Below, piece by piece: positions 1 through 6,969 of a DNA stretch of 6,969 nucleotides. Numbering within the stretch: position 1 is the stretch's first letter; each line of letters starts with the position of its first letter. The DNA is from a virus (lineage: Duplodnaviria; Heunggongvirae; Uroviricota; Caudoviricetes): the IMG/VR virus record IMGVR_UViG_3300003155_000382. The stretch is one strand, 5' to 3'. The notes below the pieces were generated by a model that was not told the DNA's origin, did no database searches, and saw nothing but the letters and a program-made list of their open reading frames with translations. The position numbers and the translations under genes were made by a program.

Positions 1-88
1 GCGCGGGGTATGCCCCTTACTGCCACCTTTACCCATAGATAATTCCCGAAACAGTAATCAATTTTATGCGAACCATATAACGACCGCT

Positions 89-134
89 TGCAACAAAAAT
101 GCATCTGTTGTATTTCATTTGTTAAAACTTAAAT
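89..134 (+). promoter_or_regulatory. Candidate promoter region for sodC (hexamers not confidently assigned)
   Basis: TTGCAA at 89-94 and AT-rich -10-like hexamers (e.g. TTAAAT around 129-134) lie 35-80 bp upstream of the sodC ATG. A weak Shine-Dalgarno (ACGGGG) sits 5-10 nt before the ATG at 170. Pattern-based only. Confidence 0.2.
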
Positions 135-169
135 CACCTTGATTAACAACACGAAATGACGGGGTATTT

Positions 170-691
170 ATGATAAAAAAAATACTTGCTGTAACTGCGC
201 TACTTAGTGGAGCCGTAATGGCTGATACAATGACGATCCCTGTAAATCTCGTTTCCTCAGAAGGAGTAGGGAAAAATATAGGGGAAATAACTATTTCAGA
301 AACCAGCTACGGATTGCTGTTCACTCCTCATCTGAAAGAACTGCCACCAGGGTTACATGGCTTTCATATCCATGAAAATGCCAGTTGTGATCCCGGTCTG
401 ATTAATGGAAAAAAAGTGCCAGCTCTTGCTGCCGGTGGGCATTATGATCCTGAACAAACAAATAAACATCTTGGGCCGTACAATCCGGAGGGCCATCTGG
501 GTGATCTACCAGCACTCTATGTCAACTCAGAAGGAAATGCAGAAAACCCGGTTCTGAGTCCAAAAATAAAAAAAATAAGCCAGATAAAAGAACGGGCGAT
601 CATGATTCATGCCGGAGGGGATAATCATTCCGATTCACCTGCTCCTCTGGGGGGTGGGGGCGCAAGACTGGCATGCGGAATAATTAAATAA
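170..691 (+). CDS. sodC: Periplasmic Cu,Zn superoxide dismutase (SodC family), prophage-borne copy
   Basis: 173 aa with an N-terminal signal peptide (MIKKILAVTALLSGAVMA, AxA-type cleavage site). SodC hallmarks are present: HGFHIH copper-ligand motif, GGHYDP...KH...GHLGDLP zinc-loop histidines and aspartate, the disulfide cysteine pair (NASCDP and RLACG), and the C-terminal GGGGARLACGIIK with the conserved arginine. The gene is AT-rich, consistent with horizontal acquisition. Confidence 0.9.
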   Translation: MIKKILAVTALLSGAVMADTMTIPVNLVSSEGVGKNIGEITISETSYGLLFTPHLKELPPGLHGFHIHENASCDPGLINGKKVPALAAGGHYDPEQTNKHLGPYNPEGHLGDLPALYVNSEGNAENPVLSPKIKKISQIKERAIMIHAGGDNHSDSPAPLGGGGARLACGIIK

Positions 692-706
692 CAAACAGCC
701 TAAAGC

Positions 707-732
707 AATCACCGTCATAGCTGGCGGTGATT
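707..732. other. Perfect 8-bp inverted repeat (AATCACCG-N10-CGGTGATT) just after the sodC stop
   Basis: Read directly from the sequence. There is no T-run on either side, so it is not a canonical intrinsic terminator; it may be an RNA stability element or a protein-binding palindrome. Confidence 0.3.
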
Positions 733-733
733 A

Positions 734-940
734 TCAGCGACCAATAACCACAACCTGACCACCATCCCCTTCATCTGCCGTGCTGATCTCCTGAGAGACC
801 ACACGTGACCCCACGCGCAGTTCACCGTACAGAACAGGCAGAACATTGCCCTGGGCAACCAGGTTATTCAAAGGCATCCTCAACGAATGGGATTCCCTCG
901 TCGCTCTGTTGAAGTCTGAAATGAAGATACACGGAAACAA
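734..940 (-). pseudogene. Short GC-rich ORF, probably a remnant of a longer gene; function unknown
   Basis: 68 codons with a TTG start and an in-frame stop only 4 codons upstream. GC content is clearly higher than the flanking AT-rich sodC and intergenic DNA. I do not recognise the protein sequence. Confidence 0.2.
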
Positions 941-1044
941 AGCACCAGAGACTTACAGAAGAATTAGCGAGCTACGCAAGGACTAACCACAGCCTCACAC
1001 TCAATGAGGCCTGTTCATTTCTCAAGATATCCAGACCTACCATT

Positions 1045-1067
1045 GCCGCATCAATGCGGCTTTTCTT
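1045..1067 (+). terminator. Rho-independent terminator between the sodC unit and xis
   Basis: GCCGCA-TCAA-TGCGGC stem-loop (1045-1060) followed directly by TTTTCTT (1061-1067). On the opposite strand there is no T-run, so it is unidirectional (+). Confidence 0.6.
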
Positions 1068-1091
1068 GCGTGTAATTGCGGAGACTTTGCG

Positions 1092-1310: not shown

Positions 1311-2358
1311 GCGCCGGGATTTACCCCCTAACCTTTATATAAGAAACAATGGATATTACTGCTACAGGGACCCAAGGACGGGTAAAGAGTTCGGATTAGG
1401 CCGAGACAGGAGGATAGCAATCACTGAAGCAATACAGGCCAATATTGAGTTGCTATCCGGGAACAGGCGTGAGTCACTGATAGACAGAATTAAAGGCGCT
1501 GACGCAATCACTCTTCATGCGTGGCTTGACCGATATGAAACAATCCTCAGCGAGAGGGGTATCAGGCCGAAAACTCTACTCGACTACGCCAGCAAAATCA
1601 GGGCAATCCGAAGAAAATTGCCGGACAAACCGCTCGCAGACATATCAACGAAAGAGGTGGCAGCAATGCTAAACACCTACGTAGCAGAAGGTAAAGCGGC
1701 TTCCGCAAAATTAATCAGGTCAACCCTTGTTGACGTTTTTCGTGAGGCAATAGCCGAGGGGCATGTGGCTACGAATCCGGTAACAGCAACCCGCACAGAA
1801 AAATCAGAAGTAAGGCGTTCAAGACTGACAGCTAATGAATATGTCGCGATTTACCATGCAGCCGAACCGCTCCCAATCTGGCTGAGGCTGGCAATGGATT
1901 TGGCTGTCGTTACAGGGCAGAGAGTAGGCGATTTATGCAGAATGAAATGGTCAGACATAAACGACAACCATCTTCACATTGAGCAGGGTAAAACAGGGGC
2001 TAAGCTCGCCATTCCGCTGACGCTAACGATTGACGCGCTCAATATCTCATTGGCTGATACACTACAGAAATGCAGGGAGGCCAGCGGCAGTGAAACAATA
2101 ATTGCATCAACGCATCACGAACCGCTTTCCCCGAAAACAGTATCTAAGTATTTTACAAAGGCGAGAAATGCATCTGGACTCTCATTTGATGGAGACCCGC
2201 CAACATTCCATGAACTGCGCAGCCTGTCGGCGAGGCTATACCGGAATCAGATTGGCGATAAGTTTGCTCAACGTCTTCTCGGGCATAAATCAGATTCAAT
2301 GGCGGCGCGTTACAGGGACAGTCGCGGGCGGGAGTGGGACAAAATTGAAATATCATAA
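1288..2358 (+). CDS. int: Tyrosine site-specific integrase, lambda Int family
   Basis: 356 aa, the same length as lambda Int. The first ~55 residues (arm-binding domain) match lambda Int as I recall it. Catalytic residues are conserved in context: R in [10 protein letters not shown] in [13 protein letters not shown] and R in [12 protein letters not shown] in LLGHKSD, and Y in AARYRD. AGAGGA Shine-Dalgarno sits upstream of the ATG. Confidence 0.95.
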
Positions 2359-2979
2359 TGGTTTTATTTTGATTAATAATGACCAGCGCACATTAACATA
2401 TTGATAATTAATGAAATTTTTAATATACAACTTCCATGTCATAAGTTGTTGCAGACTGACTGCGCGCATTCCGTTGTCAGTTTTTGTGGCGCTTCCGGTG
2501 TGGTAGATGATGTAACGTCCCATCCATACCATTAAGTGCTGGTCATCGCCCTGATCGAAAAAAATCATATCGCCAGGCAACGCCTGGTTTATGTCCTGGC
2601 CAATAAAATGGCTGTTGTACTGAATCAAATTAATTGCGGTCACATAGGGGCCAGTTTTCCCATTCCCCTGGCTCCAGTTTTGTGCCAATTGCCGCTGTTC
2701 AGGTGTTAGCGCCATCTCCGGCGGCAGATATTGGTTAGATATGCTGTTATTTTTTAGCCATTTACTGTCATGAACTTTCAACGCCTCGTTTGCCGCAAAG
2801 CGCACCAGACCCGCGCAATCCTGCTGATACCAACGTGGGCTTGGCCCCTGACGAAGTTGTTCCTGGGCAATGCGCACAAACCAGGCACGAAATAGTCCCG
2901 ATTGTTCGACATCCAGCATTTCGCTATGGGCGAAAAAACAAAACAGCCAGCAAATCAGCGCCGACAACACGCGCCTCAT
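2353..2979 (-). CDS. yfaT: YfaT-like DUF1175 family protein; 3' end runs through the att core into prophage DNA
   Basis: 208 aa. Assigned from position and size: in E. coli K-12 the gene order is gyrA-yfaA-yfaT, all on the same strand, and YfaT is about 207 aa. Its start overlaps the yfaA stop (ATGA), suggesting translational coupling. The last ~26 codons are extremely AT-rich and lie on the phage side of the att core. Confidence 0.7.
2356..2448. other. Prophage attachment site at the int-proximal junction (attL-type: P' arm, IHF site and core)
   Basis: Starting at the int stop codon, the sequence is colinear with the lambda P' arm as I recall it from lambda attP and attL, with identical segment lengths. 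It contains three arm-type-like repeats (2356-2386), an IHF-like site, and a core CAACTT(2428-2433)-ccatgtcat-AAGTTG(2443-2448) with the same 6-9-6 architecture as lambda CAGCTT-N9-AAGTTG. Confidence 0.7.
2394..2406 (-). promoter_or_regulatory. IHF binding site candidate (H'-equivalent)
   Basis: The reverse complement reads TATCAAtatgTTA, a full match to the IHF core consensus WATCAANNNNTTR. It lies at the same distance from the core as the lambda H' site (TATCAAtttgTTG). Confidence 0.5.
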
Positions 2980-4673
2980 AATGGTTGCCAGCTAACAGGC
3001 AACCACTGCCAGGCAGCCCCGGGCTCCATCTTGACCAGTTTCATTGCATAACGGGGTTGTTGCGATAAAGCGTCCAGCTTCGGCATTAATAAAGTCTGCG
3101 CTGCGTTATAAAAAACAGGCTCAAGGTTTTTTGGCAAGCTGGCCAATGTTTCATTACGCAGTAATTTTGCCACCCCTTGTGGATTGATATAGACCGGAAT
3201 GACGCCATCAGCCGGTATTACATCCACCATTGCCGGGCGCGTTTTGTTCAGCGTTTGCAGCGCGTTATTGACCAGCGTGTCGTCAAGGGAGAAAATCAGC
3301 GTCTTGTTCTGCATCGCCAGCGAGACGCGGAAAAAATAATCGGACATCAGTTGTTCTGGTTTCGCCGCCTGGGCTGCGGGATACTGACCATAACGGGAGC
3401 TGACTTCACGCCGCCAGATTTGCGCGTCGCCCTGTTGTGTTTGCGTTACCGGCAACACACCTTCAGGTGCTTTGCTCTCGAGGGCCCCGATTGTTTGTGT
3501 AAACAGCTTCCCTGGCAGTTGCGCTTGCTCGGCAGCGCCATCAAATTGGCCAACAAACAGGGGGGTTTGCAACCTGGAATCTTCATACCAGCATAGCCCG
3601 GCAGCACCGTCCAACATCCCGCTCAATTTGTCGTTTTCCTGGCTGATATGCGAGAGCATCTCTTCGGCAATACCGTGCGAATAAGGCAGCGCCACGCAGA
3701 AGCTGGCACCAGCAGGCATACTGCGCCATACCGGAGTGAAATCAAAACTGGCATCGACACTGGCGGATTCATCATTCAACGCCAGAAAGCTGCGCCAGCC
3801 ATCATTGCTCATTTCAAAGCGCACGCCAGCAAAAGAAGGAATTAACCGCTGGTAACCTAAACCCAGCAAATTAGCGCTAACCACGATACGCTGGCGAACA
3901 AGTGTTTTTTCAGCGGAGGATTGTAAACGGTCTTCCAGGCCAAAGCTGGCCTCCCAGTGTTTTTTCCCGCTCAACAAATCACTCGCGATCGCCGTGGCTT
4001 CGGTATCCTGCTGGTCGCCTTTAAACAACATATCTGTGCTGGAAAAAACCAGCATCTTGTCCTGATAACGGGTAAACAGCAGTGAGTTATTGCCGTTATA
4101 GCGCAGTTGATAAACAGGTATGGTTTCATTATTAATCGTAATGCTACTGATCTCCGTCTTACTTAACTGGCTGTCGCTGGTGGCGGCAAACAGTAACGGC
4201 TCCAATAACTTACTCAAACCACTGCGTTGAATCAGCACGATATAATGCGAGAGATGGCCTTGTTTGTCGTGCCACAGCGCCGCTTGCGCTGGCTGGTCTA
4301 ACAATGAAGAAAAGAGCTTATCTTTCAGCGTTAAATCATGTTCATACACAATGCGCCGAATACTACCTTCAATCCCCAGACGGTCAGCATGGTTCTGATA
4401 ATAAAAAACAAAATCTTCACTTAGAACATCGCGCAGAAAAGGAATTGTGAGGAGGTCTTTGGGAAGCTGGCTTAACGAATCGCTGTCGAGAAAGAGGTCC
4501 GGCTCATTGAGATCGATTTGCAGATTGTTGTGCACCACCAGAGGCGACAACGTTTTTTCTGGCCCACTGCCAGCATATTGCAATGCCCAGACACCCGCGG
4601 AAAGCAGTGCTATTGCGCCAAAACCTACAAGACCATAAAACCGCCAGCCTTTCGCCCTTTTTTCACCACTCAT
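2976..4673 (-). CDS. yfaA: YfaA-like DUF2138 family protein (N-terminal membrane anchor)
   Basis: About 565 aa, lying immediately downstream of gyrA as in E. coli K-12. The likely start is the ATG at 4671-4673, which has an AGGAA Shine-Dalgarno 7 nt upstream; the GTG two codons further up (4677-4679) has no usable spacing. The N-terminus has a hydrophobic segment ([22 protein letters not shown]). The stop overlaps the yfaT start. Confidence 0.7.
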
Positions 4674-4780
4674 TGCCACATTCCTTGTGTAAAGCCAGCC
4701 ATTTTTTACGGGCGATGCAAAATTTTCTCGCGCCTTAATACAACAAAAGCCCAGACTTTGCAGCCTGGACTTTTCAATTC

Positions 4781-4804
4781 AAAAAAGGGAGATTACTCCC
4801 TTTT
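4781..4804 (-). terminator. Rho-independent terminator of gyrA
   Basis: GGGAG-ATTA-CTCCC hairpin (4787-4800), extendable by A:T pairs, about 20 nt after the gyrA stop. On the minus strand it is followed by TTTTTT (complement of A6 at 4781-4786). Confidence 0.65.
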
Positions 4805-4821
4805 GGCATGAAGAAATAAAA

Positions 4822-6969
4822 TTATTCTTCTTCTGGTTCGTCGTCAACGTCCACTTCCGGAGCGATTTCATCGTCCCCTTCCGCTGCGCTGCCGTCAATA
4901 GCATCCAGATCTTCATCGTCAACTGGTTCTGCAACACGTTGCAGCCCCACCACGTTCTCCCCTTCTGCAGTACGGATAAGGATCACGCCCTGGGTGTTAC
5001 GGCCCACGATGCTGATCTCCGACACGCGAGTACGGACCAGCGTCCCCGCATCAGTGATCATCATGATCTGGTCGCAGTCATCAACCTGCACCGCGCCAAC
5101 CACTAAACCGTTACGTTCGGTAACTTTGATGGAGATGACCCCTTTCGTCGCACGCGACTTAGTTGGATACTCCTCCACCGCGGTACGTTTACCGTAACCG
5201 TTCTGCGTTGCAGTAAGGATTGCGCCATCGCCGCGCGGCACGATCAGAGAGACGACTTTATCGCCTTCACCTAAACGGATACCGCGAACACCGGTAGTGT
5301 TGCACCCCATTGCGCGGACGGAAGACTCTTTGAAGCGCACCACTTTACCTTCGGCGGAGAACAGCATCACTTCGTCTTCACCGCTGGTCAGGTCAACGCC
5401 GATAAGTTCATCGCCTTCAACCAGTTTGATCGCCACTTTACCAGCAGTACGCAGGCGGTTGAATTCGGTCAGGACCGTTTTCTTCACGGTACCGTTAGCG
5501 GTCGCCATGAAGACTTTCACGCCTTCTTCAAACTCGGTCACCGGCAGGATCGCAGTGATACGTTCGTCCTGCTCCAGCGGCAGCAGGTTGACTATCGGAC
5601 GACCACGCGCGCCACGGGTCGCTTCCGGCAGTTGATAAACTTTCATCGAATAGACGCGACCACGGCTGGAGAAGCACAGGATATGATCGTGGGTGTTCGC
5701 CACCAGCAGTCGGTCGATAAAGTCTTCATCCTTAATACGTGCGGCAGATTTACCTTTACCGCCACGACGCTGCGCTTCGTATTCAGAAAGCGGCTGATAT
5801 TTCACATACCCCTGATGAGAGAGCGTGACAACAACATCTTCCTGAGTGATCAGATCTTCCAGGTTGATATCTGCGCTGTTGGCAGTGATTTCCGTGCGGC
5901 GTTTGTCACCGAACTGTTCACGAACCAGCTCCAGCTCTTCACGGATCACTTCCATCAAGCGATCGGCGCTGCCAAGAATACGCAACAGTTCCGCAATCTG
6001 ATCCAACAACTCTTTATATTCATCGAGCAGTTTTTCATGCTCAAGGCCGGTCAGTTTCTGCAAACGCAGATCCAGAATCGCCTGAGCTTGCTGCTCGGTC
6101 AGATAGTACAGCCCGTCACGCACGCCAAACTCGGGTTCCAGCCATTCTGGACGCGCAGCATCGTCGCCAGCACGTTCCAGCATTGCGGCAACGTTGCCCA
6201 GCTGCCACGGATTAGCAACCAGTGCGGTTTTCGCTTCTGCCGGGGTTGGCGCATGACGGATCAGTTCAATGATCGGGTCGATGTTCGCCAGCGCCACAGC
6301 TAATGCTTCAAGGATATGCGCACGGTCACGGGCTTTACGCAGTTCGAAAATGGTACGACGGGTCACCACTTCGCGGCGGTGACGAACAAACGCAGCGATG
6401 ATGTCTTTCAGGTTCATGATCTTCGGCTGACCATGGTGCAATGCCACCATGTTGATACCGAAGGAAACCTGCAACTGGGTCTGGGAGTAGAGGTTGTTGA
6501 GCACCACTTCACCGACCGCATCGCGTTTAACTTCAATCACGATGCGCATCCCGTCTTTGTCAGACTCGTCACGCAACGCGCTGATGCCTTCCACGCGTTT
6601 TTCTTTTACCAGTTCCGCAATTTTCTCGATCAGACGCGCTTTGTTCACCTGATACGGAATTTCGTGGACGATAATAGTTTCACGCCCGGTTTTGGCGTCA
6701 ACTTCCACTTCAGCACGCGCACGGATGTACACCTTACCGCGACCGGTACGGTAAGCTTCTTCGATACCACGGCGACCATTAATGATCGCTGCCGTCGGGA
6801 AGTCCGGCCCCGGGATGTGTTCCATCAGCCCTTCAATGCTGATGTCTTCATCATCGATATACGCCAGACAACCGTTGATGACTTCCGTCAGGTTGTGCGG
6901 CGGGATGTTGGTTGCCATACCTACGGCGATACCGGAAGAACCGTTCACCAGCAGGTTAGGAATTTTGGT
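4822..6969 (-). CDS. gyrA: DNA gyrase subunit A, 5'-truncated by the window edge
   Basis: The translation matches E. coli GyrA from about residue 161 ([27 protein letters not shown]...) to the acidic C-terminal tail (...[19 protein letters not shown]). The gene continues beyond position 6969. The first in-frame start in the ORF track is not the true start. Confidence 0.97.

Follow-up and report, generated by a model that had tools for sequence, protein, structure and literature searches.

A probable HK022-type attL with a changed overlap inside Escherichia albertii yfaT, and the apparently fortuitous protein tail read from its P' arm

What becomes of YfaT, a protein of the DUF1175/MagC family, when its gene runs into prophage DNA, and what kind of integration brought the two together? 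The 6,969-bp stretch of DNA analysed here (the window) raises this question, as its minus strand holds an open reading frame in which yfaT crosses an att core and continues into a phage P' arm, just as a first-pass annotation of the sequence had described. That annotation further proposed that lysogeny exchanges the native C-terminus of YfaT for a phage-encoded tail, translated by accident from AT-rich arm DNA. We conclude, with a probability of roughly 90%, that the junction is the attL (B-O-P') of a lambdoid prophage, or of the remnant of one, that it is of the HK022 type with a new overlap and lies inside E. albertii yfaT, and that the tail is fortuitous. The earlier proposal therefore held in outline, but it lacked the HK022-type module with its changed overlap, the identity of the host and the splitting of the operon to which yfaT belongs.

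The features of the window are collected in Table 1. On the host side, positions 2431-6969 aligned without gaps to the E. albertii type strain NBRC 107761 at 99.27% identity (yfaA being 99% identical to its counterpart in this strain), while the host part of the window was only about 84-91% identical to E. coli; judged by these identities, the host DNA is E. albertii chromosome and not that of E. coli. The yfaA stop and the yfaT start overlap by 4 bp. On the phage side, xis overlaps the start of int, the same arrangement as in lambda and HK022. Directly upstream of xis (window 1-1090) sit sodC and a fragment of a tail-assembly gene, and homology to the xis-int module of E. coli begins only at position 866, which places a breakpoint near 865/866. 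None of the complete E. coli genomes contained positions 1-1300 as one contiguous stretch. The left part of the window, and hence the prophage, looks as if it may have been deleted or rearranged, leaving a remnant.

Table 1. Features of the 6,969-bp window, with window coordinates and the basis of each assignment
Feature	Position	Strand	Basis or remark
sodC, phage moron	170-691	+	ORF listing and Pfam
Tail-assembly gene, C-terminal fragment	about 734-870	-	phrog_4554/phrog_32
xis, excisionase, 72 aa	1092..1310	+	Pfam Exc PF07825, E 3.9e-41, full length
int, HK022-type heterobivalent tyrosine integrase, 356 aa	1288..2358	+	Pfam and alignments
Hybrid yfaT (DUF1175), 208 aa	2979..2353	-	ORF list, Pfam, protein alignments
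P' arm block homologous to arm-type Int sites P'3-P'1	2356..2386	+ strand TAATGGTTTTATTTTGATTAATAATGACCAG	HK022/lambda attP alignment
IHF-consensus site TATCAATATGTTA, at the position of lambda H'	2394..2406	-	Aligns with lambda TATCAATTTGTTG
C' core-type Int half-site CAACTTC	2428..2434		Aligns with HK022 C' CAACTTA
Putative 7-bp overlap	2435..2441		CATGTCA on the plus strand, TGACATG in yfaT sense, within codons M180-W182
Host B core-type half-site TAAGTTG, inside yfaT	2442..2448		Present in K-12 and E. albertii empty sites
yfaA (DUF2138), same operon, upstream of yfaT	2976..4679	-	Pfam E 4.4e-275
gyrA, 3' part	from 4822	-	ORF listing and Pfam

Empty sites with an uninterrupted YfaT of 207 amino acids are found in both E. 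coli K-12 and E. albertii NBRC 107761. The hybrid protein was identical to the E. albertii YfaT through K183, after which the alignment collapsed, and in the comparison with both prophage-free strains identity held through W182-K183 and no further, close to the point where the first-pass annotation had expected it to end. Neither of these native proteins carries the C-terminal ~25 residues of the hybrid. In place of the last 24 native residues, the hybrid has 25 different ones: residues 1-183 are encoded by host DNA (2431-2979) and residues 184-208 by the phage P' arm (2356-2430), followed by a TGA stop codon at 2353-2355. The tail had been counted as 26 residues; its replacement stands, yet its first K is encoded by the shared core and only 25 residues are new. 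The frame was also said to end 3 bp before the int stop codon, which proved incorrect, as the two convergent genes in fact overlap by 6 bp (2353-2358), the last sense codon of the hybrid (TTA, 2356-2358) being the complement of the int TAA stop and its TGA stop the complement of the last Ser codon of int. At the DNA level, homology to the empty E. albertii site broke exactly at 2431. We defined the core by three junctions, namely the one in the window, the opposite end of the prophage in E. coli F2_81 and the unoccupied site, and found a common core, CTTCCATGTCA, of 11 bp (2431-2441) that is identical in all three and reaches 15 bp if one mismatch is allowed. These empty-site comparisons support the view that lysogeny replaces the native C-terminus of YfaT with a tail encoded by the phage.

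The arm between the int stop codon and the core (2359-2430, 72 bp) is 79% A+T. It aligned with the non-coding P' arms of HK022 (63 of 77 positions identical, 82%) and lambda (54 of 78, 69%), and since it does so directly downstream of an HK022-like int, the AT-rich stretch is phage DNA, in agreement with the earlier assignment. Within it, a block homologous to the arm-type Int sites encodes 11 of the tail residues when read on the minus strand; we take this block to be P'1-P'3 on the model of lambda attP, whose arm consensus is C/AAGTCACTAT. The lambda GenBank feature 'int 4' (27814-27854) was tried as a guide to the arm sites and rejected in favour of alignment, as it falls within coding sequence of int, away from the P'1-P'3 block. 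The candidate IHF site, which encodes part of the sequence INYQYVN in the hybrid tail, is the sole match to the IHF consensus WATCAANNNNTTR in the window, though a statistically weak one, with 0.40 matches expected and at least one match in 65 of 200 shuffles; because a consensus match is not rare by chance, its assignment rests on its position. With alignable arm-type Int sites and a predicted IHF (H') site adjoining int, the stretch has the composition expected of a P' arm.

The integrase encoded next to this arm contains the Pfam domains Arm-DNA-bind_1 (E 7.3e-29), SAM-like and Phage_integrase (E 4e-41), and the lambda catalytic positions R212, K235, H308, R311, H333 and Y342 are invariant in its alignment with the lambda and HK022 proteins, so that it combines the arm-binding N-terminal domain and the R-K-H-R-H-Y catalytic residues of a heterobivalent integrase. 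Its amino acid identity was 76% to lambda Int, 97% to HK022 Int (about 10 positions and the C-terminal residue differ) and about 100% to the Int found at yfaT in E. coli F2_81. The sole difference from the latter is E171 (window 1798-1800), a position at which the HK022, lambda and F2_81 integrases all have A. The likeness to HK022 extends to the rest of the recombination module: the DNA from int through the P' arm is 95.4% identical, with the match ending at window 2433, the core edge; a homologous Xis is present; the P arm, seen at the far junction of F2_81, is nearly identical to that of HK022; and the core half-sites form the same CTT / AAG inverted repeat, with the same order of int, P' arm and core.

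Where the module departs from HK022 is the overlap, which is AGGTGAA there and TGACATG here, and the attB, which here lies inside yfaT; the attB of HK022 itself is torS-torT. Combining the window with the second F2_81 junction and the empty sites, we reconstructed the attP core as CTCCTTC-TGACATG-GAAGTTG, compared with ATCCTTT-AGGTGAA-TAAGTTG in HK022, and the yfaT attB as CAACTTA-TGACATG-GAAGGAC, spanning codons 178-184. The C' half-site of the window has the same last 4 bp as the host B' half-site and forms an inverted repeat with TAAGTTG at 2442-2448, and this host B half-site is the exact reverse complement of the HK022 C' half-site. Inverted Int half-sites flank a 7-bp overlap identical in attP and attB, whose register and cleavage positions we infer from the BOB'/COC' layout of HK022, a phage in which the overlap can be arbitrary provided that attP and attB are the same (PMC7736782). 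The Int half-sites (..CTT. /.AAG..) are kept relative to HK022 and only the 7-bp overlap is new. As the overlap must match in attP and attB, the replacement of AGGTGAA by TGACATG indicates that the phage was retargeted from the HK022 site to yfaT. An Stx1a-converting phage, Stx1a_NIID112183 (LC744181; L005:2540-2760), carries an int with 97.4% DNA identity to that of the window next to an HK022-type core, CAACTTATTCACCT. Since Stx1a phages keep the HK022 core with a near-identical int, near-identical integrases appear to serve two chromosomal sites by means of different overlaps.

The junction is not peculiar to the window. Its type was found in 169 of 5426 complete E. coli genomes (about 3%), many of them O111 EHEC, and a short-tail variant of the arm, taken up below, in 7 of the 5426. 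The junction is identical in two species whose host sequences are only 84-91% identical, and the fact that E. albertii carries the identical phage module at exactly this position argues that integration is site-specific and recurrent. The yfaT integration site itself is already known and has been in the literature since 2013, when Bobay et al. named yfaT as one of the core genes that phage integration disrupts (PMC3603311). Mageeney et al. 2020 (TIGER) subsequently described the islands Eco557.50.DUF1175 and Eco615.14.DUF1175 with a truncated DUF1175 match, and the HMM span in their supplement is 18-216 for the uninterrupted and 18-194 for the interrupted protein (PMC7192596). These elements resemble ours in that they occupy the same gene and truncate the DUF1175 match without restoring it (20-225 versus 20-202 in the present case), and differ in that they were reported from E. 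coli, without a description of the hybrid tail, of the kinship with HK022 or of how the att site is built, whereas the present instance is in E. albertii.

We propose that site-specific recombination took place inside yfaT, the MagC/DUF1175 gene of an alpha-2-macroglobulin operon. Strand exchange would pass the yfaT frame from K183 into the P' arm, which by chance contains no stop for 25 codons, until the TGA complementary to the last codon of int; on the way, the arm-type Int sites would be translated into the 11 tail residues and the IHF H' site into INYQYVN, and the hybrid would end without the C-terminal block and without the final beta-strand of the MagC fold. What is lost can be read from the Pfam DUF1175 model (PF06672), which matches the native protein at positions 20-225 of its 226 with 195.9 bits and the hybrid at 20-202 with 157.9 bits. 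The 183 host-encoded residues clearly belong to the DUF1175/MagC family (E 3.6e-46), and the hybrid lacks the C-terminal block and strand that belong to a full-length PF06672 match. No block of the family is more conserved than the lost native tail, in which 14 of 24 residues are invariant in 40 diverse homologues, and in the model of native YfaT the C-terminus has a pLDDT of 91-94 and the last beta-strand spans residues 196-202. MagC of Pseudomonas aeruginosa (PDB 7bk8; magABCDEF), a close homologue of YfaT (E 1.8e-103) with which the native model superimposes at a TM of 0.87/0.94, shares the conserved C-terminal block with native YfaT, and the hybrid is without it. As a near-invariant C-terminal block and the last strand are gone, a loss of function is likely, and conservation and structural models together indicate that the hybrid is probably non-functional or unstable.

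Other YfaT homologues also end in unrelated C-terminal replacements, at other places in the protein (P0088, P0005, P0006, P0032 and P0065). The Cronobacter sakazakii homologue P0088 diverges after DTRWI and the E. coli homologue P0005 after DTR, into membrane-protein-like sequence, while P0006, P0032 and P0065 diverge earlier. The sequences of these divergent C-termini suggest other insertions, deletions or frameshifts in yfaT.

The exchange of the tail is probably not the larger effect of the integration, which more likely lies in the split of the yfaA-yfaT-yfaS-yfaQ-yfaP operon. yfaS, coding for a MagD-type alpha-2-macroglobulin, begins within about 20 bp after yfaT, and in F2_81 the other junction lies 15 kb away, adjoining yfaS. 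The prophage would thus separate yfaS-yfaQ-yfaP from yfaA-yfaT and from the operon promoter. E. albertii NBRC 107761 has a yfaS frame without a stop over at least 1125 codons (L011:6324-9701), and in K-12 (L001:1-1402) and F2_81 (L003:15209-19723) yfaS is an annotated pseudogene with an internal stop, so that certain lineages may already be able to do without the operon. A scan of positions 2200-3100 for promoters and terminators revealed nothing above the shuffle expectation, and no terminator-like site on the minus strand from yfaT to int. With no terminator between the two genes, host read-through would be antisense to int; transcription of yfaA-yfaT could continue in this orientation through int and into xis. 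Next to the far att junction of the degraded 15-kb element of F2_81 are two T3SS effector genes, nleG and nleA (L003:11912-14494), from which it follows that elements at yfaT can be effector-carrying exchangeable loci.

As neither Int nor Xis shows signs of damage, yfaT would be regained by precise excision, with CAACTTATGACATGGAAGGAC as the junction product. In the strongest of the alternative accounts, regulated gene integrity, the element would act as a reversible switch that turns yfaT and the downstream alpha-2-macroglobulin genes off by integration and on by excision. yfaT is among the new candidates that Mageeney et al. 2020 put forward on the criterion that attB falls within a conserved Pfam domain and that the attB:attL/R bit-score ratio exceeds 1.1 (PMC7192596), and here that ratio is 195.9 for the native to 157.9 for the hybrid protein, or 1.24. 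Intact int and xis genes fit such a switch, as does the coexistence of interrupted and uninterrupted alleles in two species (169 + 7 of the 5426 E. coli genomes interrupted and the rest intact, and the E. albertii window versus the type strain), and elements at the site can be short remnants that keep int, as in the 15-kb element of F2_81. Yet the low, lineage-restricted occupancy (about 3% of E. coli) is what ordinary lysogeny at a tolerated site would give, in line with Bobay et al. 2013, who read such sites as poorly populated secondary ones (PMC3603311). On balance, we consider a regulatory switch of this kind unlikely.

A narrower form of this idea draws on the mag alpha-2-macroglobulin operon of Pseudomonas, which protects against peptidoglycan-targeting T6SS effectors (PMC12663445). 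Lysogeny would here be a reversible off-switch for a Mag-type envelope-defence operon, by truncating the MagC homologue and uncoupling yfaS-Q-P from the promoter; we regard this as slightly more doubtful still. If it were true, lysogens, including many O111 EHEC, would differ from cured cells in their resistance to peptidoglycan-targeting T6SS effectors or other envelope attacks, and excision might in turn be influenced by operon read-through antisense to int. How much is at stake biologically depends on the importance of the yfaA-yfaT-yfaS-yfaQ-yfaP operon in Escherichia.

A different alternative is that the gene is repaired rather than broken. Phage 21 and e14 in icd offer the precedent, since there too a conserved protein gene is entered in its 3' part by means of a lambdoid tyrosine integrase; in icd, however, the phage carries a homologous 3' end, by which ORF length and function are kept (PMC3603311), whereas the yfaT arm has no homology to the 3' end of yfaT, no attP homologue of the target's 3' end is present and 14 invariant positions are lost. 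A non-homologous version of this icd-type restoration would hold that the arm was shaped to supply a C-terminus of near-native length that leaves YfaT functional. The lengths agree well (25 residues against 24 in the native protein), and the same frame that is open here contains two stops in the homologous HK022 arm and one in the lambda arm. An open frame of 24 codons nevertheless arose in 8.4% of composition-preserving shuffles of the arm (P=0.084), in which the median tail was 6 codons, so that its openness is no more than chance expectation and fits a fortuitous frame, as the first-pass annotation had suspected. Moreover, a sister variant of the P' arm (L032:3530-3635, P0004), 82% identical to that of the window and present at the identical yfaT core in E. 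coli/Shigella contigs, yields a YfaT of 186 amino acids ending TWK-LHV, with a tail of merely three residues. A supposed third variant, P0003 ('...TWKLYIKIS', 189 aa), was discarded as a partial gene at a contig end.

Similarity between the tail and the native yfaT 3' end was not significant, either in DNA local alignment (P=0.27) or as protein (P=0.30), even though 14 of the 24 native positions are invariant. A shared 9-nt sequence, AATTTCATT, and the residues 'NFI' were considered as a vestige of homology between the arm and the native 3' end and rejected, being out of register and not significant. In an AlphaFold model of the hybrid, the tail had pLDDT values of 57, 46 and 36 and was modelled as disordered, the Pfam match is truncated, and the tail residues are accounted for by the conserved Int and IHF sites. 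The greater frequency of the long-tail arm (169 versus 7 E. coli genomes) could in principle reflect selection for the long tail, or else a clonal expansion of O111; the 169 genomes are largely from O111 and related lineages and are not independent, and 168 of the 169 window-type copies are at least 99% identical. Taken together, a functional substitution is very improbable. Given the absence of native similarity and the three-residue sister tail, the tail is best explained as a by-product of the arm sequence, and the gene as not restored; the sequence of the tail looks fortuitous, set by DNA sites for Int and IHF and presumably without selection as protein. The last alternative, namely that the AT-rich stretch derives from the host and the junction lies elsewhere, is refuted, as homology to the E. 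albertii and E. coli empty sites ends at 2431, the P' arms of HK022 and lambda have their counterpart in positions 2359-2430, and the analysis yielded no point in its support.

The attL of an HK022-type prophage or remnant inside yfaT, with a fortuitous tail, is thus the reading that we retain. What it adds to the published site is incremental, namely the layout of the att region, its kinship with HK022, the derivation of the tail from Int and IHF sites, a second variant of the arm and an occurrence in E. albertii. It also bears on annotation, for the chimeric C-terminus, which the annotations of hundreds of genomes assign to a normal 'DUF1175 domain-containing protein', would consist of translated Int and IHF sites, and annotators and pangenome analyses should count the 208-aa form as a disrupted allele. 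For the biology of these phages, the locus would provide a clean example of a lambdoid phage that enters a conserved protein gene without rebuilding it, and of an HK022-type module that switches its chromosomal target by a change in the 7-bp overlap alone.
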